Assembly (NCBI GenBank): GCA_031441465.1
Contig: JANOEP010000039.1
Location: 52,906-116,905 of the forward strand
Length of the DNA stretch: 64,000 nucleotides
DNA from: a bacterium
Lineage (GTDB): Bacteria > Krumholzibacteriota > Krumholzibacteriia > LZORAL124-64-63
Reading direction: 5' to 3'
Part shown: positions 19,762 through 50,475 of the stretch, piece by piece
How the letters are laid out: each line of letters opens with the position of its first letter
Position numbering within the stretch: position 1 is the stretch's first letter
Position numbers and translations under genes: made by a program
The notes under the pieces: generated by a model
What the model was told of the DNA's origin: nothing
The model's database searches: none
What the model saw: the letters and a program-made list of their open reading frames with translations, nothing else

Positions 19762-20205
19762 TCAGCGGTACAGGGCTTTCACGGCTCCCCAGGATCCGCT
19801 CTCGTAGGGCACGATCTCCAGCATCTGGTAGTCGCAGTGCAGGATGTTGCCGGGGTCGATCGAGTTGCCGTTCAGTTCGACGCGGTACCAACCGATCGGG
19901 TCGGGGATGGCGTCCTCCGCGGGGTCGTACGCGAAGGCGATCGTCTGCCCGACATTCAGCTCCCACATCTCGGGCAGCCCCACACAGCCGTACACGCACT
20001 CCATGGTGCCGAGATGGTAGATGAAACAGGCGGGGAAGGAATTGAAGGAGGCCTGGTTCGGGCCCGCGTTGTGGATGGTGATCGGCACGATGTCGCCCTG
20101 GGAATACTGCGTCGCATCCGTGACGACGCTCAGCTGGGCGACGGCCGATGCGGCCGTCATGCACAAGACTGCCAAGACGATCAGGATGCGAATCGTTCTG
20201 CTCAT
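19762..20205 (-). CDS. Secreted hypothetical protein (Ig-like) with conserved C-terminal tail
   Basis: Sec signal (...ASAVA/Q), beta-rich body, ends VPYESGSWGAVKALYR. Confidence 0.8.
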   Translation of the reverse strand: MSRTIRILIVLAVLCMTAASAVAQLSVVTDATQYSQGDIVPITIHNAGPNQASFNSFPACFIYHLGTMECVYGCVGLPEMWELNVGQTIAFAYDPAEDAIPDPIGWYRVELNGNSIDPGNILHCDYQMLEIVPYESGSWGAVKALYR

Positions 20206-20353
20206 CGCTCATCCCTCCCTGCGCGTTCCCGGAACGCGATGCGTGCGGACATTGGCGGGGAGAAGCAACGTCTTGATGATACGGTATTTCGGCGTCACCG
20301 ACAATCGGCATTCAGGTTGCTGGTGGCGGGCAAGTCCTTGCCGAGCCTCATCG

Positions 20354-20878
20354 TCATTTGAGCGGCCGGCAGCCGCCCTCCACGTACGGCACATACCGCT
20401 TCAGCAGGAAATGCTGCCAGGTCTGCTCCACCACGGCGGGCCAGCCCTCAAGGACCTCGCCGGCGGCGTGGACCTCGACCCGCACCAGCGTGCGCCCCTC
20501 GCCGGCGTCGGCGAAGGTCCAGGTCGTGACCATGTGGATGGCGTGTCCGGTCAGGCCCAGCGGTCCCTCGTAGCGCAGGATCTCGCCGCGGCGCGCGTAA
20601 GTCACGACGGCGTGGCGGATGCCGTCGCCCTGCTCGTCGAAGACCTCGAGGAAACCGCCGCCGGGCTTCGGTTCGACGACCAGGCGCACGGGGTGGTCGG
20701 ACATGGTGTGGTCCCACCAGCCGGAGATGTCGCCGGTGGCGGCGTCGAAGGCCGCGGCCGGCGTCCCGGTCACCGTCGCCTCGACCGTGAAGGCGAACGA
20801 GCCGGTCGGCGGCGCCTCGGCGCGGGCGGACGCGGCGAGCAGCAGCGCGCAGCAGGCGAGGGTCGGGAAACATCGCAT
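20354..20878 (-). CDS. Secreted SRPBCC/AHSA1-like domain protein
   Basis: Signal peptide; AAFDAATGDISGWW, EPKPGGGF, TWTF..AGEGRT.V and W..FL pattern. Confidence 0.75.
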   Translation of the reverse strand: MRCFPTLACCALLLAASARAEAPPTGSFAFTVEATVTGTPAAAFDAATGDISGWWDHTMSDHPVRLVVEPKPGGGFLEVFDEQGDGIRHAVVTYARRGEILRYEGPLGLTGHAIHMVTTWTFADAGEGRTLVRVEVHAAGEVLEGWPAVVEQTWQHFLLKRYVPYVEGGCRPLK

Positions 20879-20898
20879 GGAGGCACCTCCGGTGTTGA

Positions 20899-21702
20899 TC
20901 ATTCGAGGACCGACACGGGATCGCCCGGGCGCAGGTCCCCCTCGCGCACCACGCGCGCGAACACGCCGAACATGACGCCGCCGCTGCATGTGCGGTAGTC
21001 GGTCAGCGTGCGCAACGGTTCCGGTCCGATCTCCCCGGTCAGCGGGTCGACCGTCGTGTTGGGGCAGCGCGGGCACGGGCGCAGGATCTCGAATTCGGCG
21101 CCGCCCGCACGCAGCCGACGCCACCCGTCCTCGGCGTAGGGTTCGCCGCCGCGGATCACCAGATTGGCCCGGAAGCGGTCCATGCCGACGCCGGCTTCGC
21201 CGCGCGCGGCGAGACGGCGGTTCAGGTCGGCGAGCGAGGCCTCGCAGCAGATCAGGTAGGGGGCCGATCCCGCCAGACCGTCGCTGAGCGTGGGGTCGTC
21301 GTCGGCGGAACCGGCGGCGGTTTCCACCAGGTGCGCGAGCCAGACCGTCTCGCCCAGCAGGTCGCTGAAGTAGCGGTTGGCCTCGGGCGCGGCGACCCTG
21401 GCCGCGAGCGTGCGGCGCTTGACGGTGACCGGCAGGGGGGACGCGCTCGCGGGCGGCGGGTCGACGCGCAATATCGGGCCGTCGGTTCCCGAAACGGTGA
21501 GGACGTCGCCGTCGAGGCCGATCGCCACGGTGGCGAGCCGGGGATGGGATTTGAGCATGACGGGTTCGCCCGACTGCGCGACCAGCAGCCACCGGCGGTC
21601 GCGGCGCAGGCCGCGGGCCAGCGCCGCGGCCTCTGTCAGGGGCACCGCGCGCGCGGCTTTGAGGGGGTAGGCGAAGAGGCTGCCGACGAGGAGGTCGCTC
21701 AC
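20899..21702 (-). CDS. MOSC domain protein
   Basis: YPLKA, DRRW, RFRANLV, EDGW, PCPRC and FGV motifs. Confidence 0.9.
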   Translation of the reverse strand: MSDLLVGSLFAYPLKAARAVPLTEAAALARGLRRDRRWLLVAQSGEPVMLKSHPRLATVAIGLDGDVLTVSGTDGPILRVDPPPASASPLPVTVKRRTLAARVAAPEANRYFSDLLGETVWLAHLVETAAGSADDDPTLSDGLAGSAPYLICCEASLADLNRRLAARGEAGVGMDRFRANLVIRGGEPYAEDGWRRLRAGGAEFEILRPCPRCPNTTVDPLTGEIGPEPLRTLTDYRTCSGGVMFGVFARVVREGDLRPGDPVSVLE

Positions 21703-21706
21703 ATCG

Positions 21707-23494
21707 TCATTCCCGCGGCAACAGCTTGGCCGGCACGTCCATCTCCATCTCCAGCAGGGCCTGCGACAGCGTCTTGCCCTGCGGGTCCAGCATGAGCGAC
21801 ACGGTGCCGCCGCCGCCCAGGGTCCGCTCCAGCAGGAAGTTCAGGGCCAGCAGGTTGGGCGCCTCGTGGCGCGTGACCCGGCCCAGCACGATGCCCTTGA
21901 AGAAACGCCGCACCACGGCCGGCTTCAGTTCCCGGCGCAGCCAGGCGTACAGTTCGGGGCTGCGGCACAGCACGCCGATGTTGCAGGTGTCGCCCTTGTC
22001 GCCGGAACGCGCGTAGGCCACCGCGCGCAGCTTCACGCGACGCGTGCGGCCGCCGGCGGCGGGCGGGGGCGGCGCCTTGACGGCGGCCACGGGGGTGCCG
22101 AGGCGCGGTGGCGCCGGATCCGCGAAGGCGATGGACTCGCTGCGTTCGAGGCCGTGGGTGTCGAGGGCGGTGACCCGGGCCGCGACGCTGCTGCGGCGGA
22201 TCAGGGCGGGCCAGTAGGCCACGACCTCCGACGGCTTCGGCCGCCCTCCGGTCACCGCCAGCCCCGAGGGCCCCGACAGGATCATCGTCGGCAGCACCAT
22301 CCCGAAGTCGTGGACCTTGGCGCGGTCGTGGTCGCGGACGCCCAGGCGCAGCAGCACCTCGTCGGTCTCGCAACGGCCGAGGGTCTCCGGCCAGATCGAG
22401 CCGGTGCCCACGACCGAGGTGTGGGTCGCGACGAATCGGTGCCCGACGCGGTTCCAGAAGGCGCGTGCGAGCGTCTCCGCCTTTTCCGTGGCGTCGGGCC
22501 CGCTGACCAGGATGGTGCCGGTCGCCTTCCAGCCGTCCTGGTAGGCCATCGAGACCTTGAAGTTCTCGGGCCGCGGCGTCCCGCGCACGCCCGAGACGCG
22601 CACCCGGTCGCGGCCGAGGTCCTCCAGGCCGATGGTGTCGAAGCGGGCGATGACGTCGGGCGAGATGTAGCAGCGCGGGTCGCCCATCTCGTAGACGAGC
22701 TGCTCCTTCACGGTCTTCTCGCTGACGAGCCCGCCGGTGCGGCGGTGCTTGGTCACGACGAAGGACCCGTCCGGCGACACTTCGACGATCGGGTAGCCGA
22801 TGCGGTCGAAGGTGGGCACGTCGCGCCAGTCGGTCAGGTTGCCGCCGGTGGCCTGCGTGCCGCATTCGATGACGTGGCCGGCGACGATGCCCGCGGCGAG
22901 GCGGTCCCAGTCGTCCTCGTTCCAGCCGAACTCGTGCATCAGCGGCGCCAGCGTGATGCCGGTGTCGGTCACCCGACCGGTCACCACGACGCGGCAGCCC
23001 ATCTCTAGCGCCCGCACGACGGGTTCGGCGCCGAGGTAGACGTTGGCGGCGGACACCCGCGACAGGTGCGGCGCCAGGGGTGCGCCCGTCTCCATGTTGT
23101 CCAGGGGGTCGCCGCCGTCGCGCAGCTCCGTCAGCCGGCCCAGGATATCGTCGCCGGAGACCACGCCCACCTTCAGGCGCAGTCCCAGCTCGCGCGCGAT
23201 CTCCACCAGCTTGCGGCCGAGCCCCTCGGGGTTCACGCCGCCGGCGTTGGTGATGACCGTCGCGCCGGTCTCCATCATCAAGGGCAGGCAGTCGCGCATC
23301 TGGTCGACGAAGTCCGTCGCGTAGCCCAGCGAGGGATCCTTGGCGCGCTGTCGCTGCAGGATGGACATGGTGACTTCGGCCAGGTAGTCCAGGGAGACGT
23401 AGTCCAGCGGTCCGCCTTCGAGTTGGCGGCGCAGCGCGCGGACGTCGTCGCCCCAGTACCCGCCGGCGTTGCCGATGCGGACGGTGCGCGTCAT
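21707..23494 (-). CDS. AtuA / DUF1446 family protein
   Basis: RIGNAGGYWGD, DYLAEVTM, NAGG.NP, GHVIECG.QATGGN, EQLVYE, ARSGDKGD and DPQGK. Confidence 0.9.
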   Translation of the reverse strand: MTRTVRIGNAGGYWGDDVRALRRQLEGGPLDYVSLDYLAEVTMSILQRQRAKDPSLGYATDFVDQMRDCLPLMMETGATVITNAGGVNPEGLGRKLVEIARELGLRLKVGVVSGDDILGRLTELRDGGDPLDNMETGAPLAPHLSRVSAANVYLGAEPVVRALEMGCRVVVTGRVTDTGITLAPLMHEFGWNEDDWDRLAAGIVAGHVIECGTQATGGNLTDWRDVPTFDRIGYPIVEVSPDGSFVVTKHRRTGGLVSEKTVKEQLVYEMGDPRCYISPDVIARFDTIGLEDLGRDRVRVSGVRGTPRPENFKVSMAYQDGWKATGTILVSGPDATEKAETLARAFWNRVGHRFVATHTSVVGTGSIWPETLGRCETDEVLLRLGVRDHDRAKVHDFGMVLPTMILSGPSGLAVTGGRPKPSEVVAYWPALIRRSSVAARVTALDTHGLERSESIAFADPAPPRLGTPVAAVKAPPPPAAGGRTRRVKLRAVAYARSGDKGDTCNIGVLCRSPELYAWLRRELKPAVVRRFFKGIVLGRVTRHEAPNLLALNFLLERTLGGGGTVSLMLDPQGKTLSQALLEMEMDVPAKLLPRE

Positions 23495-23588
23495 GGATGG
23501 CTCCCGGTTGGCGTGGGCGGACGGCAAGGGATGCTATAGGCGACGCCGATCCGGAACAAGATGTGATTTCCGGCATCGCTCGGGTAAG

Positions 23589-23621
23589 GAGCCGGGATCG
23601 AGGGGTCCCCGATCCCGGCTC
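23589..23621 (-). terminator. Hairpin downstream of the bacilliredoxin gene
   Basis: Perfect 12-bp stem GAGCCGGGATCG / CGATCCCGGCTC. Confidence 0.55.
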
Positions 23622-23640
23622 TGGACGTCCACGGGCGGGA

Positions 23641-24057
23641 TCAGCTCTGCAGATCGGCGTCGGCCTGCTTCAGCAGGGCGGCGAAGGCGGCCGCGTCACG
23701 GCCCTCGATCTCCATGCGATGGATGTACCGCACGGCCTTGCCGTCGCGCAGCAGCAGGACCGAAGGGCTGCTCGGGGCGAAGCTGCCGAACCGGGCGCGG
23801 ACCTGGGAGGTGGCTTCGAGATCCATGCCGGCGAAGACCGTCCCGAGGTGGTCGGGGCGATTCGAATCGGCCAGGAACAGGCTTAAGCCGGGTCGGGCGC
23901 TGCCGGCGGCGCAACCGCAGACCGAGTTGAAAAACAGCAGGGAGGTGCCCGGGCGCGCCAGGAAAGCGTCCACTTCCGAGGCGGTGGTCAGCTCTTCCAT
24001 CCCTAGGCGGGTCAATTCGGACCTCATGTGCTGGGTCATCACGGGATCGTACATCAT
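23641..24057 (-). CDS. BrxA/BrxB family bacilliredoxin
   Basis: NSVCGCAAGSARP, TVFAGMD, PSSPS and HRMEIEGR. Confidence 0.9.
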   Translation of the reverse strand: MMYDPVMTQHMRSELTRLGMEELTTASEVDAFLARPGTSLLFFNSVCGCAAGSARPGLSLFLADSNRPDHLGTVFAGMDLEATSQVRARFGSFAPSSPSVLLLRDGKAVRYIHRMEIEGRDAAAFAALLKQADADLQS

Positions 24058-24096
24058 CCACTCCAACCAATTGAGGGGAGGGCGAGTTTAGGGAGA

Positions 24097-24119
24097 ATGA
24101 TTATGATATCTGTAATCAT
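24097..24119. promoter_or_regulatory. AT-rich inverted repeat in a divergent promoter region
   Basis: ATGATTA-N9-TAATCAT in an otherwise GC-rich context. Confidence 0.4.
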
Positions 24120-24224
24120 AAAATAGCGCCACGAATCAGGCTATTGTCGGTCCTGACTTGAAATCCCGGCGTCGCGGCCTATCCTTGGGGCAGGTTGAGC
24201 GACCCGAACCCCCGGAGGCACCCG

Positions 24225-25019
24225 GTGAAGACGACGACCCTGGCGATCCTCGCGATCGCGTTGTCCGTGGCCCTGATCGGCTGCGGCGAAAAGAAGAGCG
24301 ATTCAGCCGCCGCCTGGAACCAGAAGGCCGCGGCCGCGGCCAAGGACTCCCCGAGCGAGGCCGCGCCGCCCGGCATGGCCGCCGGCGGCAATCTCGGCGG
24401 TGTAGTGGCCGAGACGTTCAATTCCGGCGGCTACACTTATGTCCGGCTCAAGACGGCCGGCGGCGAGCTGTGGGCGGCCGGTCCCGAGGGCCCGATGCAG
24501 GTCGGGCAGAAGCTCGAACTGGTGGGCGCCATGGCCATGCAGAACTTCCACGCTGCGAGCCTCAACCGCGACTTCGCGGAGATCTGGTTCGCGGCCTCCT
24601 TCGCCGCGCCGGGCCAGGCCCCCCCGGTGGACATGCAGGCGGAGATCAAGAAGGCCCACGGCGGAGTGGCCGTCGGCAAAGCCGACGCCGACTTCAGCGG
24701 CCTGACGACCCCGTCGGGCGGTCTGAAGGTCGCCGAGGTGAACACGCGCCGCGCCGAGCTGGCGGGCCGGTCCGTCAAGGTGCGGGGCAAGGTCGTCAAG
24801 TCGCTGACCGGCATCATGGGCCACAACTGGCTGCACGTGCAGGACGGTTCGGGCGACGGCGAGACCGCCGACCTGACCGTGACCACCGACGCCGCCGCCA
24901 AGGTCGGCGATACGGTCCTGATCGAGGGCGTGCTCGCGGTCGACAAGGACTTCGGCAGCGGCTACTTCTACAAGGCGATCGTCGAGGACGCCGCCGTCCG
25001 CGTGGAGCAGTCCTCGTAG
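24225..25019 (+). CDS. Lipoprotein with two OB-fold-like domains (NrfJ-like)
   Basis: Lipobox LIGC; GGYTYV...E.WAA, F...SLNR.F and IMGHNWLHVQDG. Confidence 0.7.
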   Translation: MKTTTLAILAIALSVALIGCGEKKSDSAAAWNQKAAAAAKDSPSEAAPPGMAAGGNLGGVVAETFNSGGYTYVRLKTAGGELWAAGPEGPMQVGQKLELVGAMAMQNFHAASLNRDFAEIWFAASFAAPGQAPPVDMQAEIKKAHGGVAVGKADADFSGLTTPSGGLKVAEVNTRRAELAGRSVKVRGKVVKSLTGIMGHNWLHVQDGSGDGETADLTVTTDAAAKVGDTVLIEGVLAVDKDFGSGYFYKAIVEDAAVRVEQSS

Positions 25020-25100
25020 GACCGGCCGTCACCGGCTGTGCGACGGACGGCGGCTGCGGTCGCCGTCCGTCTTGTTGGTCCCGGGGGATCCGGAGCCGAG

Positions 25101-26282
25101 ATGAGCGAGCGCACCATCCTGCACGTGGACATGGACGCCTTCTTCGCTTCGGTGGAGGTGCTCGACGACCCGCGCCTGCGGGGCAAGCCGGTGATCGTCG
25201 GCGGCACGCCCGAGGGCCGCGGCGTGGTGTCGGCCGCCAGCTACGAGGCGCGCCGCTACGGCGTGCGCAGCGCCATGAGCGCGGCGCGCGCGGTCCGGCT
25301 CTGCCCCGACGGCGTGTTCCTGCGCGGGCGCATGGAGCGCTACGCCGAGGTCTCGGGCTGGATCTTCGACGTCTTCCACGAGATCTCCCCGCTGGTCGAA
25401 CCGCTGTCGGTGGACGAGGCGTTCCTGGACGTCGGCGGCTGCCGGCGCCTGCTCGGAGACGGCCCCACCATCGGGCGCCTCGTGAAACGGCGCCTCCTCG
25501 ACGAGATCGGGCTGGTCGCGTCGGTCGGCGTGGCGCCGAACAAGTTCCTGGCCAAGCTGGCGAGCGACCTGGAGAAGCCGGACGGCTTCGTGGTGGTCGA
25601 TCCCGCGCGAATCCAGGAATTCCTCGACCCGCTCCCGGTGAGCCGGATGTGGGGCGTGGGGGAGAAGTCCGCCGCCGTCCTGGAGTCCCTCGGCATCCGG
25701 ACGGTTCGCGACCTGCGGCTCGCCGACGCAGTCCGCCTGGAGTCGCGCCTGGGTGCGGCCTTCACGCAGCACGTGAGGGAACTGGCGGTCGGCCACGACG
25801 AGCGGCCGGTGACGACCGACCACGAGGCCCGCAGCATCGGCCACGAGATCACCTTCGCCGAGGACATCGGCGAGCGCGAGGCGCTGGTGGAGGTCCTCGA
25901 CCAGCTCGCGCACAAGGTGGCCCGCCGGCTGCGCCGCGCCGGCAAGCTGGCGCGCACGGTGCAGCTCAAGGCCCGCTTCCCCGACTTCACGACCGTGACG
26001 CGCGCCGAGACCTTGCCCGAGCCCACCGACCGCACCGATGTGCTGCGCGACGCCGGCCGCCGCCTTTTCGACGGGCAGCTCGATCGGCAGGGCCGCCCCC
26101 TGCGGCTGATCGGCCTCTCGGGCCAGAACCTCGTCGATCACGAGGTGCGGCCGCCGACCCTGTTCCCGGATCCCGCCGAGGAACGCGGCCGCGCGCTCGA
26201 CACGATCATGGACCGGGCCGCCGAGCGTTACGGCGGCCGGGCGATCACCCGCGGTTTGCCGCGCCGCAAGCCCAAGCCCTGA
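25101..26282 (+). CDS. dinB: DNA polymerase IV
   Basis: HVDMDAFFASVE, SYEAR, SVDEAFLD and NKFLAKLAS. Confidence 0.96.
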   Translation: MSERTILHVDMDAFFASVEVLDDPRLRGKPVIVGGTPEGRGVVSAASYEARRYGVRSAMSAARAVRLCPDGVFLRGRMERYAEVSGWIFDVFHEISPLVEPLSVDEAFLDVGGCRRLLGDGPTIGRLVKRRLLDEIGLVASVGVAPNKFLAKLASDLEKPDGFVVVDPARIQEFLDPLPVSRMWGVGEKSAAVLESLGIRTVRDLRLADAVRLESRLGAAFTQHVRELAVGHDERPVTTDHEARSIGHEITFAEDIGEREALVEVLDQLAHKVARRLRRAGKLARTVQLKARFPDFTTVTRAETLPEPTDRTDVLRDAGRRLFDGQLDRQGRPLRLIGLSGQNLVDHEVRPPTLFPDPAEERGRALDTIMDRAAERYGGRAITRGLPRRKPKP

Positions 26283-26355
26283 CCCGGCAGTCGCAGCTTG
26301 CGGGTCCGGGCGGCTTCTGCGATCCTGCCCGGGGCCCACGAACGGAAGGACACCC

Positions 26356-26850
26356 ATGCGCAGGACCGTCGTCGGAGTCATGGGCGGCTGCTCCGCCGAG
26401 CCCGCTACGCTGGAGCACGCGCGCGAACTGGGCCGGCTCATCGCCGCCGAGGGCTGGGTGCTGCTCAACGGGGGCCGGCCGACCGGTGTGATGGACGCCT
26501 CGGCCCGCGGCGCCCGCGAGGCCGGCGGCCTGAGCGTCGGCGTGCTGTTCGACGACGACGTGTCCGCGGCCAGCGAGCACCTGGATATCGTCATCCCGAC
26601 CGGCTTGGGCGCCGGCCGCAACATCATCAACGTGCTGGGCAGCGACGCGATCGTCGCCTGCCGCGGCAGCGGCGGCACCCTGAGCGAGGTCGCCATGGCC
26701 CTGCGCTTCGGCAAGAGGGTCGTGCTGCTGGACTTCGATCCCGGCAGCCGGTTTTTGAACCTGTGCGGCGGCGGGCAATGGAGCCTGGCCGCGACCCCCG
26801 CCGAGGCGGTGACCCAGGTCAAGACCTGGCTCGCCCGGCCGAAGGATTGA
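26356..26850 (+). CDS. LOG-family Rossmann protein (TIGR00725-like)
   Basis: NGG..GVMDA, TGLGAGRN and GGTLSE. Confidence 0.85.
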   Translation: MRRTVVGVMGGCSAEPATLEHARELGRLIAAEGWVLLNGGRPTGVMDASARGAREAGGLSVGVLFDDDVSAASEHLDIVIPTGLGAGRNIINVLGSDAIVACRGSGGTLSEVAMALRFGKRVVLLDFDPGSRFLNLCGGGQWSLAATPAEAVTQVKTWLARPKD

Positions 26851-26853
26851 CCC

Positions 26854-28872: not shown

Positions 28873-28900
28873 CAACACGGTACAGAGAGGGAGATGCAGG

Positions 28901-29146: not shown

Positions 29147-29150
29147 GACC

Positions 29151-30686: not shown

Positions 30687-30701
30687 GCCGGGCGCGGCCG
30701 C

Positions 30702-32504: not shown

Positions 32505-32545
32505 GATCCCACCTCCAGCCCGCCAGGGCTCCTGGTTCTTCGTTG

Positions 32546-34457: not shown

Positions 34458-34514
34458 CGACGGCAGGTAGGGTAGGATGGGTTGATCGGTCCCTCATGTT
34501 TGGGAGGTCACGAC

Positions 34515-35213
34515 ATGCGACACGCGGCGATGCTGACGTTGTGCCTGCTGACGACGGCCGGCGTGCTGCCGGCCTCGGCCCAAGTTCCCTTCCTGCCCCT
34601 TTCTCCGGGCTGCGCCTGGACCTACACCGACGGGGCGGGGCACGAACTCACCATCGAGGCGGCCGGGTACGCCGTGGTCCAGGGCGAGAACACCGTCGAA
34701 CTGGTCTGGCGGGAGCCGGGAGACGTCTTCCACAATTTCTGGAGCCTGGGACCGACGGGCGCCGTGTTGCTGCACGGCGCCTACAACGAGGACGGTTTCG
34801 TGGCGAGCTACTCGCCGCCGATCCAGTGGCTGCCCGCGGTCTCGGCCACGGAACGCTGCTGGAGCACGACCTCGCGCGTCTACGGGAGCCTCGATGCCTC
34901 CCAGCCCTTGGAAGAATTCACCTTCTCCTACTGTGTGGTCGGAGGCGGGATCTTGACCGTGCCGGCCGGCGAGTTCGACACCGTCGCGGTCTCGGACGCC
35001 TCGCCGCCTCTGCTGACCGGCGCGGACGGCGGCGCGGCCTGCGATCTCCTCGGGCGCCGGCGCGACGGGGCGCCACGGCAGCAGGTTCCGCGCTCCTTCT
35101 CGGCGGGTGTCGGCCTGGTCAAGGAAGGCGACTGGGAACTCGCGAACTACGGCGGCCCGACACCGTTCGGGACGTCGAGCTGGAGCGAGGTCAAGGCGCT
35201 GTACAGCAGATAG
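34515..35213 (+). CDS. Secreted hypothetical protein with conserved C-terminal tail
   Basis: Signal peptide (ASA/Q), LTVPAGEF and AGVGLVK motifs, ends TPFGTSSWSEVKALYSR. Confidence 0.8.
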   Translation: MRHAAMLTLCLLTTAGVLPASAQVPFLPLSPGCAWTYTDGAGHELTIEAAGYAVVQGENTVELVWREPGDVFHNFWSLGPTGAVLLHGAYNEDGFVASYSPPIQWLPAVSATERCWSTTSRVYGSLDASQPLEEFTFSYCVVGGGILTVPAGEFDTVAVSDASPPLLTGADGGAACDLLGRRRDGAPRQQVPRSFSAGVGLVKEGDWELANYGGPTPFGTSSWSEVKALYSR

Positions 35214-35238
35214 GGAGCGAACCCCGCCGGAACGAACA

Positions 35239-35265: not shown

Positions 35266-35290
35266 CGTACTCGAAATCGATCCCCGCCGA

Positions 35291-35776
35291 TTACCGATAG
35301 AGCGTTTTGACGGCTCCGAACGTCATGGCCTCGTTGCCGACGATGTTGTCGAGCGTCATCTGGCCGCGGATTTCGCCGCCGGGAAAGGTCGTGCTGTGGA
35401 CATTGAGGTAGATCGATCCCGCGACGAGGTTGGCGTATTGGGTCGCGGTCATGTTCCAGGTCCCGGCGACCGGCGAGCCGATCGGCAAGCCGAAGGCCAC
35501 CGGACCGTTGACGCCGGCCACGGCGGTGTGGAAGTGAACGGCGGTTTGCGAACTCGATAGGCCGCTGAACTGCAACTGGTAGGTGGCGACCAGGGTCTCG
35601 GTGTTGACGGTGAGTGCGGCGATGCCGAGGGCGCTGCTGGCGTTGGGCGGGACTTCCGAAGCGCCGGTGAGCATCGTGGTGTAGATGGCCAGATCGGCGT
35701 AGGCGGCGCCGGCGCCGAGGCCGAGCACCAGGACGGCCGCTGCGGCGACCAAGGCGGACTTCTTGAGCAAACGCAT
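35291..35776 (-). CDS. Secreted CHRD-domain protein with conserved C-terminal tail
   Basis: LTGASEVPP, HFH, G.NGPV and YLNVHSTTFPGGEIRGQ; ends VGNEAMTFGAVKTLYR. Confidence 0.9.
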   Translation of the reverse strand: MRLLKKSALVAAAAVLVLGLGAGAAYADLAIYTTMLTGASEVPPNASSALGIAALTVNTETLVATYQLQFSGLSSSQTAVHFHTAVAGVNGPVAFGLPIGSPVAGTWNMTATQYANLVAGSIYLNVHSTTFPGGEIRGQMTLDNIVGNEAMTFGAVKTLYR

Positions 35777-40385: not shown

Positions 40386-40407
40386 GCCCTGACGGCGGAG
40401 GCGGGGG

Positions 40408-40797: not shown

Positions 40798-40823
40798 CCG
40801 CCGCAACCGGGAAAGCGCACCCT

Positions 40824-42847: not shown

Positions 42848-43977
42848 AGCGACGCCTGGCCGGCCTGGCGCTGCTGCCCGCGACCGCCGTCACGGCGGGG
42901 GCCGCCACCCACACGTTGTCCGTCGAAGCCGCGCTGCTGCTCGTCGCCTTCGGCCTGCTGATCGTGTTGCCCTTCGTGCCGGGCCTGATCGAGGTCTGGC
43001 GTCCGCGCGATCGCTACCCGCTGCCCGTGGACATGAACTACACCAAGGACCCGCGCTACCTGGGCCGCTCGGCCCGCGCGCTGCTGGCCGCCGCCCTCCG
43101 CGACGACCAGGGCCCGCCCGGCCGTCGCACGGTGACCCTCTCGAAGGTCGAGGCGGTCGAGGTCCACGACCGGCTGGACGTCTCGGCGGGCGCCAACCTG
43201 ACCGCGATCCAGCTGGCCCGCGGCGCGATGGTCGTCGGGGACCGCGCGACCTGCGACCGCGACATCTACGCCCGCGCCGGCGCCCGCATCGGCGAGGGCG
43301 CCGTGCTGCGCTCGCTGGCCTGCGACGGGCGCGCGGCGCTCGGCCGCGGCGTGACCATCGCCCGCTGGCTCGACGTCGAAGGCGACGCCCACGTCGGTCC
43401 GCAGTCGGACCTGGGCGCCAGCGCGGCGGCCGCGGGTTTCCTGGAACTGGCCGACGGCGTGACGTTTGAGCGCCTGTGGGGCTCCCCCGTGCGCACGACG
43501 GGTTACCTCGGACCGCGGGAGCTGCCGGCGGCCCCGGCGCCGTTCGCGTTGCCCGACGTGCTGGAGATCCGCGACATCGAAGACCTGGCGAGCCTGCACC
43601 GGGGCGACTTGGTCGTCGGACCCGGCGAGACCTTCGACCGCCCCCTGGTGGTCAAGGGCGACCTGCGGATCGAAACCGACGCGGTCGTCGACCGCACGGT
43701 CAAGGTGTACGGCGACCTGACCCTGGAGCCCGGGGCGCGGCTGCTCGGCGACGCCTTCGTCGAGGGCGCGGTGATCGTGGGCGAGGGGGCGGCCGTGCGC
43801 GGCTGCGTCTTCTCGCAGGACTCCGTGGAGTTGAGGCGCGGCGCGCGCGTGGGCACGCCGGGCCTGGTCAAGACGGTCGTCGGCAAGCACAGCGTGACGC
43901 TGGCCGGCGACGTCGCCGTCCACGGGTACGTGCTGACCGACGGCCGGGGAAGCGTGCGATGCCGCGGCTCGGACTGA
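42844..43977 (+). CDS. Membrane-anchored beta-helix (bactofilin/LbH-like) repeat protein
   Basis: Hydrophobic N-terminus, then repeats such as VVKGDLRIE, VKVYGDLTLE and FVEGAVIVGEGA. Confidence 0.65.
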   Translation: MKRRLAGLALLPATAVTAGAATHTLSVEAALLLVAFGLLIVLPFVPGLIEVWRPRDRYPLPVDMNYTKDPRYLGRSARALLAAALRDDQGPPGRRTVTLSKVEAVEVHDRLDVSAGANLTAIQLARGAMVVGDRATCDRDIYARAGARIGEGAVLRSLACDGRAALGRGVTIARWLDVEGDAHVGPQSDLGASAAAAGFLELADGVTFERLWGSPVRTTGYLGPRELPAAPAPFALPDVLEIRDIEDLASLHRGDLVVGPGETFDRPLVVKGDLRIETDAVVDRTVKVYGDLTLEPGARLLGDAFVEGAVIVGEGAAVRGCVFSQDSVELRRGARVGTPGLVKTVVGKHSVTLAGDVAVHGYVLTDGRGSVRCRGSD

Positions 43978-45809
43978 TCCTGGCCCTGATCGCCTGCGTC
44001 GCCGTGGCGGTCTACGGCGTGGGAGTCCTGCGCCACGTCGGGCACGAGGCCGAGCGCGGCGATCTGCGCGTGCTGGTGGGATTCAACCCCTCGCTCATGG
44101 ACGAGAGCGGCGACGTCGTCGCGGCCTGGCGCAGCGTGCTGGAAGAGGAGGGCGTCCCCGCCGAAGCCCTCGACCTGTACACCCTGCTGGACCTCGACCC
44201 CGCGGCGACCGTGGCCGCCTGCCCCGCGCTGATCCTGCCCGACGGCGTCTGCCGCCGCCTGAACTCCTCGCTCGAACCATGGCTGGACGCCTACCTGCGC
44301 GCCGGCGGTTCGCTGATGGTCGTCTACGACGCGGGCATCAAGAGCCTCAAGGGCGCCTACCTGCCGCGCAGCTACCTGGCGCGGTTCACGGGCGTCCAGC
44401 ACGTGGACTACACCGACGGCGGCCAGGACAGCTACACCACCGGCACGCTGCGCTTCGCCGACGAGGACGCCGCCCGCACCTGCCAGATCCCGCCCGGCAA
44501 GCTGGACCCCGACCTCACCCTGACCGGCTACAGCTACGGGCGCCTGCGCTACCCCGTCGCCCGGACGCGGCTCGAGGCCGACGACGTGCGCGTGCTGGCC
44601 TGGACCGTCACCGACGACGGCCGCGAGCAGCCGGCGATCGTCGCGCGCGCGTACGGGGCCGGCCGCTGCCTGCACGTGAATCTGCCGCTGGGTCACCTGA
44701 AGTCGCACGCCGACGACCTGCCGCTGCGCGCGATCGCGCGCTGGTGGCTGCTCGAAGAGGTGGGCCTGCCCTGCCTGATGAACACGCCGCGCGGCGTCGG
44801 CGGTCTGGTGCTGAACTGGCACGTCGACGGCAACGGCGACTGGCCTTTCCTGGACGACATGGTCGCCCGCGGCCTCTTCCGCCGCGACCTGCCCGCCTCG
44901 ATCCACGTCTGCGCCGGACCCGACCTGAACGCGCCGGGCGACGGCGACGGTTTCGACGCCTGCGGGCGGGGGCGTCGCCAGCTCGAAGCCCTGGCCGGCC
45001 TGGGCGAGATCGGCTCGCACGGCGGCTGGACCCACAACCTCTTCTCCGCGGAAGTGCTGGCCGGACGCTGGGGCGCGACCGAGGCGCGCGAGGCCGTGCG
45101 CCGCAACCGCGACTGCCTGCGCGAGGTCGTCGGCCGGCCCGTCGCGGAATACTCCGCGCCCGACGGCGTGCACCCGCCGCACCTGATGACGCCGCTGCTC
45201 GAGGAGCTGGGCTTCACCTGCTACTACACCACCAGCGACGTCGGCAGCGCGCCCAACCGCAGCTTCAGCGACGGGCGGCGGCTGTCGGACCTGCTGATCG
45301 CGTTCCCGGTCATGCCCCTGCGCGACGTGGCGAGCTTCGGTGAAATGGACACCAAGCTGCGCCTGCCGACCGGAGAGGTGGCGTCCTGGCTGGACGGGAT
45401 GCTGGACTACTGCGAACGCAACCGCGCGGTGCGCCTGATGTACTCGCACCCCTACAACCTCTACCTCTACCACGGCGACCAGGACTACCTGCCCGCCTAC
45501 GCCGCCTGGCTGGACGAGCTGGCGGCGCGATGCCGCGACGGGCGCCTCCAGGTGCGGCCGATGCGCGAGTTCGCCGCCTTCCAGCTGCGGATGCTGCAGA
45601 CCGCCGCGACCTGGCGGGTCGGCGACGGCGAACTGCGGCTTCATCTGCGCAACCCGCAGACCCTGCGCGACCTGGCCTTCAGCGTGCCGGCGGCCCGCTG
45701 GCGCGCTCCGGAAGCGCCGGGCCTGCGCGCCACGACCGGCGGCGGTCGCCACGTGGTGGTGATCGAGGACGATGCGCGCGAGATGGATGTGGTGCTGCAT
45801 GCTCGCTAG
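43959..45809 (+). CDS. Periplasmic polysaccharide deacetylase (CE4/NodB-like) with N-terminal glutamine amidotransferase-like domain
   Basis: N-terminal TM; HVD, IGSHGGWTH, YSAPDG and YSHP motifs. Confidence 0.75.
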   Translation: MPRLGLILALIACVAVAVYGVGVLRHVGHEAERGDLRVLVGFNPSLMDESGDVVAAWRSVLEEEGVPAEALDLYTLLDLDPAATVAACPALILPDGVCRRLNSSLEPWLDAYLRAGGSLMVVYDAGIKSLKGAYLPRSYLARFTGVQHVDYTDGGQDSYTTGTLRFADEDAARTCQIPPGKLDPDLTLTGYSYGRLRYPVARTRLEADDVRVLAWTVTDDGREQPAIVARAYGAGRCLHVNLPLGHLKSHADDLPLRAIARWWLLEEVGLPCLMNTPRGVGGLVLNWHVDGNGDWPFLDDMVARGLFRRDLPASIHVCAGPDLNAPGDGDGFDACGRGRRQLEALAGLGEIGSHGGWTHNLFSAEVLAGRWGATEAREAVRRNRDCLREVVGRPVAEYSAPDGVHPPHLMTPLLEELGFTCYYTTSDVGSAPNRSFSDGRRLSDLLIAFPVMPLRDVASFGEMDTKLRLPTGEVASWLDGMLDYCERNRAVRLMYSHPYNLYLYHGDQDYLPAYAAWLDELAARCRDGRLQVRPMREFAAFQLRMLQTAATWRVGDGELRLHLRNPQTLRDLAFSVPAARWRAPEAPGLRATTGGGRHVVVIEDDAREMDVVLHAR

Positions 45810-46668
45810 CACGGGGATCCTCGCCCTGTCCGGCGGCTGCGCCGGCCACCGCAGCCCGGCGCTGGCGGTCGTGAACTGGTTCGAGCCCCTCGACGGCGGG
45901 CGCGACCGCGTGAACCCGTACTTCACGAACCTCTACGCCCTGTCGCTGGTGCGCCACCGGCTCGGGAGCGGCGAGGTGCACGACTACGTGGCCTGGTACC
46001 TCGACCACCTGAACTACCCGGACCGCCACGGCCTGACCGGCACCATCGACGACATGGACGTGCGGCCGGGCGGCCGCCTCGAGCGGACCGGCAGCTACGA
46101 CTCGGTCGACGGCTATGCCGGCACGTTCCTGCTGCTGCTCGACGAGTGGGAACAGTCCGGCGGGGACCGCGCCCTGCTGGAGGCGAACCGCTCACGCATC
46201 CAGGACGTCGCCTGGCTGCTTCTGCGCCTGCAGGATCCCGACGGGCTGGTGCGCGCGCTGCCGGATGCGAACGCGCGCTACCTGATGGACAACTGCGAGG
46301 CCTACGCCGGGCTGCTGGCCTTCGACGCCCTCAGCCGGCGCCTGGGCTGGGACCAGGGCCCGCGCCACCGGACCGCGGCCGAAGACATCCGCAAGGCCGT
46401 GCTGAGCCGTCTGTCCGACGAGCCGGGCCGGCGCTTCCACTGGGCGGACGCCGGCGGCGTGCCGCACCGGTCCGACTGGGACGTGTTCTATCCGGATGCG
46501 CTGGCCCAGCTGTTCCCGATCCTGTACGGTGTGGTGGACGCCCGCTCGGATCTGGCGCAGCACCTGTGGCGGGAATTCGAGCAGCGCTACGACCCGCGCG
46601 CGGGGCAGCCGGTCTCGGCGGTCCAGCGCGCGATCATCGACCTGACCAGGGAGCGAGTGACGCCGTGA
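45772..46668 (+). CDS. Lipoprotein, putative (alpha/alpha)-barrel glycoside hydrolase-like
   Basis: Lipobox LSGGC; DSVDGYAG.FL, LQDPDGL, YLMDNCE and FYPDA.AQLFP. Start codon uncertain. Confidence 0.55.
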   Translation: MRARWMWCCMLASTGILALSGGCAGHRSPALAVVNWFEPLDGGRDRVNPYFTNLYALSLVRHRLGSGEVHDYVAWYLDHLNYPDRHGLTGTIDDMDVRPGGRLERTGSYDSVDGYAGTFLLLLDEWEQSGGDRALLEANRSRIQDVAWLLLRLQDPDGLVRALPDANARYLMDNCEAYAGLLAFDALSRRLGWDQGPRHRTAAEDIRKAVLSRLSDEPGRRFHWADAGGVPHRSDWDVFYPDALAQLFPILYGVVDARSDLAQHLWREFEQRYDPRAGQPVSAVQRAIIDLTRERVTP

Positions 46669-47501
46669 CCCACAAGACACTGCGATCCGTCCTGCTGGCC
46701 GCCGGATTGACGGCGCTGTCGCTGACCGGGGCCGCGGGCGCGGACGCCGCCGGCGGCGCCGAGGAATGGGCCCGCCTGCGCGGCGCCCCGGGCTACCGCC
46801 TGGACGTCGACCTGCAGCTGGACCGCCTCAGCCCGCAGGACCTCTACGGGAACTGGGCGACCGGCACGGCCACCCTCTACGTGAAGACCCTGCCGCGCCT
46901 GACGCCGTTCGTTCAGGTCTCCGTGCTGGAGCGCGAGGACGTCGACGCGGGCTTCTCCGTCGGCGCCTACGCCGACTGGACCAGCCGCCTGTACTCGTCC
47001 ACCTCGTTCACCGCCGGCGGCCGTTCGCACTACCTGCAGAAGAACCGCTGGGACCACGCCTTCTACCTCAACACCGGTCCGGTCACCCTGGTCGGCGGCG
47101 CCGGCTGGATGCAGGACCACGACGGCCACGAGGACTGGTCGCTCGCCTTCGGTCCCCGGCTGTGGCGCGGCCGCCTGATCCTCGAGTACCTCGCGACCCG
47201 CACGGTCAGCGACCCGGGCGAACACGTCGGCTGGAAACACAGGGTGTCCGGCGGTTGGGGGGAGGAGGGCCGCAGCTGGCTCTTCGCCAACCTCACGCTC
47301 GGCCAGGAGCGTTACGCCGCCACCTGGGTGACCCCGGTCCAGGACGTGGACCACGACTTCTACGAGGTCACGGCGAGCCTGCAGCGCTGGGTGCGGCCGC
47401 GCCTGGGCTACAAGCTGCAGGCGGGCTGGCTGGACCTGGGCGAGGGGTTGGACGGGTACGAGAAGATCGGCGTCGGCGTCGGTGGGTTCGTCGAGTTCTG
47501 A
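46665..47501 (+). CDS. Outer-membrane beta-barrel protein (YaiO-like)
   Basis: Signal peptide, alternating amphipathic strands rich in W/Y/G, C-terminal VGGFVEF beta-signal. Confidence 0.75.
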   Translation: MTHKTLRSVLLAAGLTALSLTGAAGADAAGGAEEWARLRGAPGYRLDVDLQLDRLSPQDLYGNWATGTATLYVKTLPRLTPFVQVSVLEREDVDAGFSVGAYADWTSRLYSSTSFTAGGRSHYLQKNRWDHAFYLNTGPVTLVGGAGWMQDHDGHEDWSLAFGPRLWRGRLILEYLATRTVSDPGEHVGWKHRVSGGWGEEGRSWLFANLTLGQERYAATWVTPVQDVDHDFYEVTASLQRWVRPRLGYKLQAGWLDLGEGLDGYEKIGVGVGGFVEF

Positions 47502-47522
47502 GTTGTGCCGCTGAAATTGTGT

Positions 47523-47560
47523 CCGGCCGCGCCATAGATAGGCGCGGCCGGCTTTCGTTT
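47523..47560 (+). terminator. Intrinsic terminator inside the IS left end
   Basis: CCGGCCGCGCC-ATAGATA-GGCGCGGCCGG followed by CTTTCGTTT. Confidence 0.65.
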
Positions 47561-47567
47561 CATCACC

Positions 47568-48668
47568 TCACATCGCGTAGCTCAGCTCATGCCGCCGCTG
47601 CCGCGGCAACACCCGCGTGCTGACCGTGCGCCAGTAGTACTCAGCCCAACGCGCCGGTAACCGGCTTCGGCTGAAGAACAACCGCCGCTCCAGCAGATCC
47701 CGCACCTCAAGCCGCCTGTCGAGCATCCCGCGCGCCTGCGCCGGCGTCGGGCTGCCGCGCTGCTTCTCCCGCCTGCCCTTCATGTAGTTCCTCCACACTA
47801 GGAACACCACCAACCGCTCCGCACTCGACTGCCGACGCTTCGACCACGCGATCGTCTCGCGCTTGTGGTTCGCGCTGCTGTGGCGGATCAACAGGTCCGC
47901 CAAGTTGATCGGGAACAACTGATTGCCTGCGTCACGCCGTTCCAGGCTCGAGGTAACAAGGTGGGCCACCTCGCACGGAAGGCCTCGCAGGACTCGCGGG
48001 TAGACCTTGTGGTCATCGCTGAAGATCGTGACCCGGCCCTGCCCACCAGTGACCACCTCCAGCAGATGCTTCACGTCCTTGAACACGGCCTTGGGGTCCG
48101 GCCGGCCATGGCGGGCTTCCAGTCGCGCACGCTTGCGCTTCTGGACCTCGGTCATGGTGCCGCTGCGGCGCACCTCGCTGTCGGTGAAGTAGACCAGGAA
48201 GTCGGTGTCCTTCTCCACGGCCAGGTGGTGGTGAAAGGGCCAGTACTGGGATTGCTCGAAGGTGACGAAGCCGTCGATGACGAACTGGTCGGCCGGCTTG
48301 GCGGTCCGCATGCGCTCTGCGTGGTAGAGCAGGCAGTGGCGGCCGAGTCTACCGAGTTGGCGGTCGATGGTCGAGGGAGCGACGCGTAGGTCCCTGGCGA
48401 TCTGTCGGTTGGCCATGCAGCCGGTGGTCTTGGTCAGCAGCTGTGGGAGGATGTCGGGGCGCTTGAGCCAGTAGGAAGTGGCAAAGGTCTGGGTGCTGAA
48501 GGATCGGCGGCAGTGAAGGCAGAGGAACCGCTGGATACGGTACGGGCTGAGGTGTCGCCGGTAGTAGCCGATGCGTTTGAAGCGCCAGCCTGGAGCCAAC
48601 TGCCTGTGGTGGAGGCAGTTGGGGTTGGGGCAGTGCGGGGGGACGAAGGAACTGTCGGTGGTGTGCAT
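47568..48668 (-). CDS. Transposase (Zn finger, HTH, RNase H-like catalytic domain)
   Basis: CPNPNC...QRFLCLHC, HTH NRQIARDLRVAPSTI, acidic motifs VIDGF and FSDD, and TPAQARG; very basic protein. Confidence 0.82.
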   Translation of the reverse strand: MHTTDSSFVPPHCPNPNCLHHRQLAPGWRFKRIGYYRRHLSPYRIQRFLCLHCRRSFSTQTFATSYWLKRPDILPQLLTKTTGCMANRQIARDLRVAPSTIDRQLGRLGRHCLLYHAERMRTAKPADQFVIDGFVTFEQSQYWPFHHHLAVEKDTDFLVYFTDSEVRRSGTMTEVQKRKRARLEARHGRPDPKAVFKDVKHLLEVVTGGQGRVTIFSDDHKVYPRVLRGLPCEVAHLVTSSLERRDAGNQLFPINLADLLIRHSSANHKRETIAWSKRRQSSAERLVVFLVWRNYMKGRREKQRGSPTPAQARGMLDRRLEVRDLLERRLFFSRSRLPARWAEYYWRTVSTRVLPRQRRHELSYAM

Positions 48669-48717
48669 GTCCGGCCCGTGGCATCAAGCGGGCCGGACAC
48701 ATTTTCGGCGGCACAAC

Positions 48718-49674
48718 TCAGGGGCCGGCATCCCACGCAGGGCCTGCCCGCAGGTGATTTTCCACGTAATAATCCAACAGCACGCGGACGAATCCGTGCT
48801 CGTCGTCGGGCACCAGCGGCCCGGCGTCGCGCAGCCAACCGTCGGCGCAGTCCGCGGCCGAGGAATCGGCGGCGGCGCGGTCCAGCAGGTTGCCGAACGC
48901 CGCGCGGTAGCGCGCGAAGTCGTCGCGACTCATCGCCGGCCCGTGTCCCGGCACCAGCACGGCGAAATCGACCTCGGCCAAGCGGGCCAGTACGGCTTGC
49001 CAGCGCCGGGGGCAGGCCGTGTCCAGCAGCGGCACGGGGAGGGTCACGAGGTCGCCCGCGATCAGCACGCCGGTGGCGGGATCGAACAGCCAGACGTCGC
49101 CGGCGGTGACGGCCCGCTCCTCGAGTCCCAGCACGAGTCGGCGGCCGGCGATCGTGCGCGCTCCGGACGCCGTCACGATCTCGTCGGGCGCCAAGGCGAC
49201 GCCCGCGTCCAGGATGGTCAGTTCGGCTCGCATCGTCGCCGCGGAGGCGGTGTCGCAATCCGTCCGCGCGAGCGCATCCTCGAGTTGCGCCCGGTAGTCC
49301 GCCAGGAAACCCGTCATCGCCCCGGCGAGCGCGCCGCTGGCCCAAACGCGCACGTCCGGGTAGGCGAGCCGCACCCGCGGGTTCCCCCCGATGTGATCGA
49401 GATGCCAGTGGGTGTTGACGATCGCGGCGACAGGCTCCCGCGCCGCGGCGGCGAAGTCGAGGATGGCTTGGGTGTGCCCGGCATGCCGGCCGGTGTCCAC
49501 CACGATCAGCCCTTCGGGCGCCTCGAGGATCACGGTATTGCCGTCGGGTTGGCTGCCGGGGACGAAGCCGCCGGGCAGCAGGTGGATCCCGTCGGCGATC
49601 TCGCCGGCGCAGCAGGAGGCGGCGGCCGCGCACAGCGTCAGCAGCGCGAGGCTTGTTCTCTTTCGTAGCATCAT
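48718..49674 (-). CDS. Secreted metallo-beta-lactamase fold hydrolase
   Basis: VDTG, NTHWHLDHIGGN, AGD and VPGHG; signal peptide. Confidence 0.9.
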   Translation of the reverse strand: MMLRKRTSLALLTLCAAAASCCAGEIADGIHLLPGGFVPGSQPDGNTVILEAPEGLIVVDTGRHAGHTQAILDFAAAAREPVAAIVNTHWHLDHIGGNPRVRLAYPDVRVWASGALAGAMTGFLADYRAQLEDALARTDCDTASAATMRAELTILDAGVALAPDEIVTASGARTIAGRRLVLGLEERAVTAGDVWLFDPATGVLIAGDLVTLPVPLLDTACPRRWQAVLARLAEVDFAVLVPGHGPAMSRDDFARYRAAFGNLLDRAAADSSAADCADGWLRDAGPLVPDDEHGFVRVLLDYYVENHLRAGPAWDAGP

Positions 49675-49887
49675 GTCGGCGGCTCCCTGCGGGGGGCGAG
49701 CGGGCGATGATCCGGGTTTCGACGCACCTGCACGGGGATTGTTCCCATCGACTGCCTGTCATCAATTCAATATGTTAATACCATACTAATTTGATATACT
49801 ATCAGGGTCGGGTCGTGTATCCTCAAGCGACTTGTTTGGAAGGGTGGCGTATCTCGCTACCGTTGTCACCGATGGAGGGAGATTCCC

Positions 49888-50475
49888 ATGCGCTCTTGCT
49901 TACTGCTTGGTCTCGTGTTCCTGACGGCGGCCGTCAGCGCCGCGCCTGTCCAGGCGCAAATCGTGAACGGTTCATTCGAGCCCGTGAGCTACTTCGGCGA
50001 CTGGGTCACCTTGCCCGGCGGTTCGACCGGGATCCCCGGCTGGACGGCCGTCGGTTCGGGCGTCGAGTGGTTCACCGGCTACGCTCTCGACGGGCTCTAC
50101 AACATCGACATTGCCAACTACACGTCGTCGGACGGGGGCATCGAGCAGACATTCCCCACCACGCCGGGCGAGGTCTACATCATCACGTTTTCCCTCGGCA
50201 CCCTCCAGTGGGCCGGCCGGGACGGCACGGCGGAGATCACGGTCAGCGCCGACGGGGCGAACCAGGTCTTCACCACCGTCAACTATTCGGCGGCGATCGT
50301 GTGGACCACGCAGGCGTTCACGTTCACGGCCGACGACGCGAGCGCCACGCTGCGCTTCCGCTGCCTGCAGAACGCCCTGCTGCACTTCGCCCACCTCGAC
50401 CGGGTGGAGGCGACGGCGCTGAGCACGCCGGCCGAGGCCAAGTCGTGGAGCGAGGTCAAGACGCTCTACCGATGA
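49888..50475 (+). CDS. Secreted DUF642 / choice-of-anchor-C-like carbohydrate-binding domain protein with conserved C-terminal tail
   Basis: Signal peptide; IVNGSFE, IPGW, GGIEQTFPTTPG..Y.ITF, FTFTA and LD.V; ends TPAEAKSWSEVKTLYR. Confidence 0.82.
   Translation: MRSCLLLGLVFLTAAVSAAPVQAQIVNGSFEPVSYFGDWVTLPGGSTGIPGWTAVGSGVEWFTGYALDGLYNIDIANYTSSDGGIEQTFPTTPGEVYIITFSLGTLQWAGRDGTAEITVSADGANQVFTTVNYSAAIVWTTQAFTFTADDASATLRFRCLQNALLHFAHLDRVEATALSTPAEAKSWSEVKTLYR

Follow-up and report, generated by a model that had tools for sequence, protein, structure and literature searches.

C-terminal sorting signals decide which proteins reach the bacterial surface, and the earlier ones each led to a new enzyme, namely sortase, exosortase, rhombosortase, PorU and myxosortase. 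In the secretion system of type IX (T9SS), cargo with a type A C-terminal domain (CTD) is shuttled by PorV and cleaved by PorU. Two sources describe the C-terminal strand of the CTD, with its conserved lysine, and the β3-β4 loop as essential for T9SS (PMC11285876, PMC11969387), and the former maps the signal of HBP35 to the last 22 residues (PMC11285876). Here we analysed a 64-kb window (the whole stretch of DNA under study, C39:52906-116905) of a bacterial assembly of 3.49 Mb in 74 contigs, with 69.6% GC and 96.8% completeness, in which four proteins end in a common tail of about 16 residues. The tail is modular, strictly C-terminal and carried by Sec-exported proteins, and it is interchangeable with PEP-CTERM-type signals and with T9SS CTDs; it probably serves as a sorting or anchoring signal.

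Four exported proteins of the window share a C-terminal tail

The initial annotation had described four genes with Sec signal peptides and unrelated bodies that end in this tail directly before the stop. The genes are as follows.

19762..20205, minus strand: gene 1, a 147-amino-acid (aa) exported protein without known family
34515..35213, plus strand: gene 2, a 232-aa exported protein without known family
35291..35776, minus strand: gene 3, a 161-aa exported CHRD-domain protein (PF07452, 1e-28)
49888..50475, plus strand: gene 4 (P0004), a 195-aa exported DUF642 / choice-of-anchor C protein

Translation confirmed all four tails as written, each followed directly by a stop codon. The tail of gene 1 is VPYESGSWGAVKALYR (19765-19812, stop at 19762-19764), that of gene 2 is TPFGTSSWSEVKALYSR (35160-35210) with one additional residue ahead of the terminal Arg, that of gene 3 is VGNEAMTFGAVKTLYR (35294-35341) with Trp replaced by Phe, and that of gene 4 is TPAEAKSWSEVKTLYR (50425-50472). 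Gene 2 starts at the ATG at 34515, and the frame in the initial annotation also opens at a TTG at 34482. The N-termini are signal-peptide-like in all four proteins by hydropathy. The bodies are unrelated, as had been said: two belong to no family, one is a CHRD protein and one a DUF642 / choice-of-anchor C protein, the last with a match to TIGR04362 (3e-24) under the curated cut-off. A metallo-beta-lactamase had been named among the exported proteins lacking the tail; indeed, the metallo-beta-lactamase-fold protein at 48718-49674 has a signal-peptide-like start and no tail. The window holds only these four copies; elsewhere on the contig, beyond the window, there is a fifth (C39:31634-32347).

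Census of the tail in the genome

A loose regular expression for the tail was run over the 6.98 million six-frame residues of the genome and gave 51 matches, of which 49 end at most 3 residues from a stop. The reversed sequences gave no match, and five shuffles gave 2-5. A hidden Markov model (HMM) built from the last 24 residues was used to scan all stop-to-stop frames at E<0.1. It matched 66 frames, and every match ends 0-5 residues before the stop; no internal copy above 10 bits was found in the frames of the genome. Sixty-four of the frames are proteins of 121-381 aa (median 229 aa), all with an N-terminal hydrophobic segment as judged by a simple hydropathy heuristic, not SignalP. Of the remaining two, one is a fragment at a contig edge and the other a doubtful frame of 46 aa. 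Therefore, both properties that the initial annotation had proposed to check with an HMM, the strict C-terminal position and the co-occurrence with signal peptides, hold for the 64 proteins, and the large set of tail-bearing proteins that it had anticipated is present in the genome.

The consensus in this genome is V-[APG]-N-E-x-x-[ST]-W-G-x-[VI]-K-[AST]-[LM]-Y-R-stop, spanning about 16 residues. Alignment of the 64 tails on the invariant Lys gave the following counts. In the upstream half, V is found in 46, [APG] in 57, N in 32, E in 48 and [ST] in 47. The core is stricter, with W in 58 (F in 6), G in 52 (S in 12), and [VIL] and K in all 64. At the end stand [AST] (61), [LMI...], [YFW] (64) and [RK] (50), followed by the stop, so that the invariant Lys sits 4-5 residues from the free carboxyl end. 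The consensus proposed at first is amended to an invariant K, a W that is replaced by F in six tails, and an upstream V-[APG]-N-E. Further upstream no conservation was observed except a frequent Cys 9-11 residues before the Trp.

Most of the 64 proteins have no Pfam or NCBIfam family. The body families that were recognised are choice-of-anchor C, E and J (two proteins), DNRLRE, CHRD, cohesin, CBM20, PPC and Kre9_KNH. In addition, two proteins have LTD bodies with matches to extracellular nuclease ExeM models, and a Temptin_C body shows a weak match to the diheme GEGP model. The bodies with families are of the kinds that elsewhere pair with alternative sorting signals.

The tail matches no known model

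In none of the 64 proteins is the tail covered by a Pfam or NCBIfam model; the initial annotation had known of no characterised pathway for such tails. NF053834 (ultrashort_CTERM) has no match in the genome, NF050076 (sort_motif_YLP) has three weak matches (E>1), none at a tail gene, and TIGR02595/PF07589 matches no tail protein of the genome. The exosortase family (EpsH, PF09721) gave no match in the genome at its 96.8% completeness. We found no description of the tail in the literature searched, which covered Eisenbacteria/Krumholzibacteriota, sorting, T9SS and PorU2, with subscription journals and bioRxiv supplements outside its scope. New here are the genome census, the finding that the tail is universal in three phyla, the exchange of tail and CTD within one genome and the cross-phylum figures for linkage to a PorU-like gene. 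No annotation model names the tail at present; with a model for it, thousands of 'hypothetical proteins' would at once be annotated as belonging to the envelope or surface.

The tail exchanges with other sorting signals

The genome encodes a T9SS. A PorU-PorV operon lies on C10, and two further PorV-like matches were found. Matches to the CTD models were frequent (97 for TIGR04183 and 120 for FlgD_ig), mostly in frames of 400-2700 aa. A CTD HMM built from this genome matched 129 frames, none of which is a tail frame, and no frame of the genome carries tail and CTD together. The two sets of cargo differ in size, the approximately 129 CTD frames having a median of 807 aa (stop-to-stop) and the 64 tail proteins one of 229 aa. 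The CTDs here start with (Y/F)PNPFNPxT and end in [RQ]-K-[ML]-x-L-[VL]-[KR]. The end of the tail, K-[AST]-[LM]-Y-R, has a similar flavour to that of the CTD, with the register off by one residue.

Three comparisons bear on the position that the tail occupies. Among the homologues of gene 4 (P0004), 35 of 44 have the tail at their end. In the 8 most distant homologues, the last strand of the body is followed at the same junction by a hydrophobic transmembrane helix with an Arg-rich end; 3 of these homologues are recorded with PF07589 (PEP-CTERM) and 1 with PF18203. Within the genome, the tail protein C64:54637-55452 has two paralogues, C36:11450 (67% identity over 226 aa) and C18:419 (56% identity). 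In place of its 18-residue tail, both carry a linker of about 20 residues followed by a T9SS-type CTD of 85 residues. The 120 best public homologues of the same family were classed with a strict tail HMM into 19 strict tails (248-276 aa), 57 CTDs (356-451 aa) and 44 others. The 44 others comprise 14 degenerate tails below the HMM cut-off, 3 CTD-like ends and 27 proteins that stop at the end of the body. Taken together, the homologues of P0004, the paralogue swap and the survey of 120 homologues show that the tail is a modular element standing where sorting signals stand.

Only one of the 14 degenerate tails keeps the Trp, which is replaced by L, M or V in the other 13, indicating that the Trp is not indispensable to the motif. 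These 13 homologues (P0336, P0337, P0357, P0385, P0390 and others) keep G-x-[VL]-K-x-[LM]-[YF]-R.

Distribution across genomes

The tail profile matched 41 of 41 relatives, with 7-73 matches each. The initial annotation had mentioned similar tails from Krumholzibacteriota, Eisenbacteria and Poribacteria; in the two of these groups that were searched, the first two, this was confirmed, by 155 of 155 genomes of the window's own GTDB phylum (Krumholzibacteria; ≥85% complete, 9 families, one class) and by 31 of 31 genomes of the Eisenbacteria-titled phylum, with 17-62 matches each. All 12 genomes of a small third phylum were positive as well. These spread figures rest on three phyla, all tail-positive. 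Across these uncultured phyla, which are common in soils and sediments, the tail marks roughly 2% of the genes.

A degenerate DNA pattern searched against 185,579 species genomes matched at least 133 stretches. No cultured taxon is among the 80 matches listed, which correspond to 78 distinct open reading frames (ORFs) of median 213 aa, with a true stop in 78 of 78 and a signal-peptide-like start in 46 of the 51 complete ORFs among the matches listed. The upstream part of the tail is P-V-E in these listed loci and in Eisenbacteria-type genomes, as opposed to V-[APG]-N-E here. In a library of 1.84 billion representatives, 311 proteins were found at E≤0.001, which is a hard threshold for a 30-position profile. 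Among the best 150 of the 311, the match lies at most 4 residues from the end in 146; of the other four, two have a tail at their end as well.

Among the best 150, non-terminal copies that convince were seen in P0196 and P0268 only. One of them has a copy directly after the signal peptide in addition to the C-terminal copy, and the other ends in two tandem copies.

Predicted structure of the tail

Two proteins were modelled by AlphaFold2 with alignments, P0004 (30 sequences) and C37:9493 (40 sequences), a member of the divergent tail-bearing family X described below. The model of P0004, with a predicted local distance difference test (pLDDT) score of 84, consists of a beta-sandwich to residue 178, a linker (179-186) and a helix (187-193), the last twenty residues scoring about 64. 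The family X model (pLDDT 73) shows a beta-sandwich, a disordered stretch (166-198) and a helix (194-205). The tail is thus predicted, with low confidence, to be a short helix undocked from the body after a flexible linker. By helical-wheel reasoning, W, V/I, L/M and Y would fall on one face of the helix, with K and R flanking them. The initial annotation had held that the tail contains neither a transmembrane helix nor a folded domain, and the models of both families are in line with this, giving a helix of 7-12 residues after a low-confidence linker.

A PorU-like paralogue is encoded beside tail genes

A second PorU-like protein of 1367 aa is encoded at C37:10393-14493, outside the window, with a Peptidase_C25 domain at residues 626-1054 (PF01364, 1.4e-44). 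It scores 150.8 bits over positions 8-734 of the PorU model NF033707, under the curated cut-off of 420 bits, and 48.8 bits on the PorU2 model NF052324. The genome's PorU, beside PorV, reaches 402.6 bits on NF033707, just under the same cut-off. The two proteins are 27% identical, and the GH and C positions, which we take to be the catalytic dyad, align. The C-terminus of the paralogue is CTD-like and 39% identical to the CTD of PorU. The paralogue was found in 59 of 61 genomes of the same phylum (E≤1e-30). A diverged form is present in 5 of 5 genomes of family f2, and in one of these genomes (G041) it lies apart from the PorV-adjacent PorU.

Two tail genes lie directly upstream of the paralogue on C37, and a third is 3 kb downstream. 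In 19 of the 24 loci fetched from family f1, and in 15 of 20 loci of other families, tail genes immediately precede the paralogue on the same strand. In Eisenbacteria they are upstream on the same strand in 17 of 20 loci, with one gene intervening; of the other three loci, one has 1.3 kb of upstream sequence without a tail, and in two the contig breaks off too early. In the third phylum, tail genes lie immediately upstream of the paralogue in 3 of 5 genomes, as taken from listed coordinates only. Among the upstream tail genes, 65 of 92 belong to family X as defined by iterated HMMs, which makes up 40 of 40 in Eisenbacteria, 13 of 14 in family f1 and 12 of 38 in the other families. In Foldseek, nearly all of the best matches to the family X model are cohesins; the lowest E is 2e-4, and the TM-scores are 0.36-0.47 when normalised by the query and reach 0.63 by target. 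The family X proteins therefore resemble cohesins, on the predicted fold only.

Another gene of the same cluster, C37:7754-8401, has homologues in 11 fetched loci, with two C-terminal D-x-N-G-D...V-N-L-S-D repeats which look dockerin-like by eye. Pfam gave no match on this protein even at E≤10. The conserved cluster can be given as one feature.

C37:7754-14496 (L287:3755-10497), outside the window: conserved cluster of a dockerin-like protein, two cohesin-like tail proteins and a PorU-like C25 peptidase

Parts of this cluster recur in Krumholzibacteria-type and Eisenbacteria-type genomes, and the linkage of cohesin-like with dockerin-like proteins is a hint that modular surface assemblies may exist outside Firmicutes. 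The genes downstream of the PorU-like gene were considered as further members and left out of the module, because they are not conserved between the phyla, with a SpoIID-domain gene here and a flavin adenine dinucleotide/iron-sulphur oxidase in Eisenbacteria.

Several other genes at these loci and near the tail genes were noted. The intervening gene of the Eisenbacteria loci (about 400 aa; L251:10551-11771, with counterparts in L256, L257 and L262) encodes a UshA-like metallophosphoesterase (NF041198, 234-264 bits) with a cytochrome c554-like multihaem end. In the genome of the window (G000), the PorU-like gene has the gene of an MtrC-like multihaem cytochrome (C37:20799) about 6 kb downstream of it. 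CTD genes are enriched about twofold around tail genes (10% versus 5%). When three genes to either side of each tail gene of this genome were surveyed, a single family recurred, that of a 366-aa insertion-sequence-like gene. One copy lies in the window (47568-48668, minus strand) and encodes a basic protein with an N-terminal Cys-rich zinc-finger-like motif and no Pfam match. It has four copies in the genome, forming two near full-length pairs (C11:95253, C39:100473, C64:35001, C67:2), and looks like the transposase of an unclassified insertion sequence.

Proposed mechanism and alternatives

We propose that a tail protein would be exported by the Sec system and lose its signal peptide, after which the folded body would bear a flexible linker and a short amphipathic tail with its invariant Lys 4-5 residues from the carboxyl end. 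A component of the envelope would recognise the tail and direct the protein to the cell surface. The candidate for this reader is the second PorU-like C25 cysteine peptidase, of the type IX secretion and attachment apparatus, which might cleave at or near V-[APG]-[NV]-E and attach or release the cargo, as PorU does with full CTDs. Three considerations led to this candidate: sortase-type enzymes are often encoded beside a substrate, the linkage holds across three phyla, and cohesin-type scaffolds need a surface anchor. The route is further favoured by its T9SS setting, with a PorU-PorV operon, many ordinary CTDs and no exosortase in the genome, and has a precedent in HBP35, whose signal lies in its last 22 residues. 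As a dedicated tail reader, the peptidase beside the tail arrays is a lead from comparative genomics. That the tail is a modular sorting or anchoring tag of small Sec-exported proteins in several uncultured phyla, with a T9SS-type reader as the most likely one, has in our judgement about even chances of being right. The narrower proposal of a T9SS-linked attachment with the PorU-like paralogue as processing enzyme is tentative, with the balance leaning against it. More doubtful still is a second type IX-style branch in which the PorU-like sortase paralogue would read a helical tag of about 16 residues in place of a folded domain of 80 residues and anchor small proteins including cohesin-like scaffolds, which together with dockerin-like partners would form a modular surface assembly in several uncultured phyla of the Fibrobacteres-Chlorobi-Bacteroidetes (FCB) group. 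If the paralogue is the reader, T9SS-type attachment can use a peptide-sized signal, which bears on signal recognition and would offer a compact display tag for engineering.

Several results weigh against a T9SS-type reader. PorV is present in 152 of 155 genomes of the window's own phylum, and since T9SS and tail are both universal in the phyla searched, their co-occurrence discriminates nothing. The CTDs of least length described have 40-55 residues (PMC11969387). An hhalign run of the tail profile against 50 CTDs from this genome revealed no similarity (probability 0.2%); the idea that the tail is a recognisable truncated CTD was therefore dropped, with the proviso that a profile this short cannot exclude it. 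The tail is modelled as a helix, at low confidence (pLDDT about 64 and <55), whereas the signals of the T9SS fold into beta-sandwiches. The main weakness is that family X accounts for 65 of the 92 linked genes but for only 4 of the 64 tail proteins here, so that the linkage, which concerns one tail-bearing family, may reflect a partnership of family X with the peptidase and not a general processing of tails.

The missing similarity between tails and CTDs would suit a dedicated machine unrelated to T9SS and to the PorU-like paralogue, such as a PDZ-type C-terminal peptide reader, a protease or an outer-membrane barrel. A second system with small-protein cargo is plausible where more than 100 ordinary CTDs are present in the same genomes, and the strict distance from the Lys to the carboxyl end suits a reader of C-terminal peptides. 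However, the three genes on each side of the tail genes offer no recurrent candidate, the insertion-sequence-like gene being the one family that recurs, and the sole conserved linkage found is that to the PorU-like peptidase, which leaves such a machine unlikely. A non-covalent docking peptide, by which small proteins would be tethered uncleaved to family X or to a PorV-like barrel, appears less likely again. It would make use of the cohesin-like proteins and the dockerin-like-repeat protein of the conserved cluster and of the two further PorV-like matches, and a short amphipathic helix on a flexible linker would fit it; family X proteins bear the tail themselves and are encoded in tandem arrays, so that chains could form. 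With about 10 residues, the helix is nevertheless much smaller than a dockerin, and the separate dockerin-like protein points to a partner that the cohesins already have.

The C-terminal helices of PBP5 and PBP6 stick to the membrane, and the tail might likewise be a self-sufficient amphipathic helix that adheres to a membrane leaflet with no machine. The helix predicted by AlphaFold2, with W, V/I, L/M and Y on one face and K and R flanking, is compatible with this, but only 7-12 residues are modelled, which is shorter than known in-plane anchors. The conservation is also too strict for such a role (K in 64 of 64, G or S in 64 of 64, and a fixed distance to the carboxyl end), the upstream V-[APG]-N-E would have no function, and the tail exchanges with signals that depend on a machine. 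We therefore regard a self-sufficient helix as very unlikely. Finally, proteases of the Prc/Tsp type work by C-terminal recognition, and a strictly C-terminal tail could in principle mark proteins for degradation or quality control by such a periplasmic enzyme. This is scarcely credible for a tail that is carried by 64 unrelated proteins, is conserved across three phyla and takes the slot of an anchoring signal in homologues, and it is implausible that dozens of structural and binding proteins would bear a constitutive degron. The reading that we prefer is thus still a sorting or anchoring tag with a T9SS-type reader.

Comparison with described sorting signals

Anchoring scaffoldins of cellulosomes carry sortase (LPXTG) or SLH anchors at the same C-terminal position. 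The conserved cluster resembles this arrangement in its C-terminally tagged cohesins, dockerin-like repeats and sortase-like peptidase; it differs in that the host is diderm, the tag is another one, and the likeness to cohesins and dockerins is read from the fold and by eye only. The ultrashort motifs of NCBIfam (NF053834, NF050076) are, like the tail, very short, C-terminal, found on exported proteins and devoid of a transmembrane helix, but their sequence pattern differs and neither model matches any tail here.

The tripartite signals PEP-CTERM/exosortase, LPXTG/sortase, GlyGly-CTERM/rhombosortase and MYXO-CTERM/myxosortase share with the tail the form of a short C-terminal module on many unrelated exported proteins per genome. 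They are also paired with choice-of-anchor bodies, and some of the substrate genes adjoin a candidate processing peptidase. In homologues, PEP-CTERM-type signals occupy the same junction as the tail. However, the tripartite signals have a transmembrane helix followed by a basic cluster, whereas the tail has neither and ends in a single R or K. The enzyme for the tripartite signals is membrane-embedded, and the candidate for the tail is a surface C25 peptidase.

Compared with the T9SS type A CTD (TIGR04183 / PF18962; PF13860), the tail has no beta-sandwich and no motif B or D, and its 16-18 residues stand against typically 70-100 (40-55 in the shortest). The CTDs here are found on large proteins and the tails on small ones. 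Nevertheless, both are strictly C-terminal on Sec-exported proteins of the same genomes, and they swap on paralogues of 56-67% identity. Their hydrophobic and basic ends, with a conserved Lys a few residues from the terminus, are alike in flavour but one residue out of register. In addition, a PorU-like peptidase of the T9SS type is genetically linked to tail genes.

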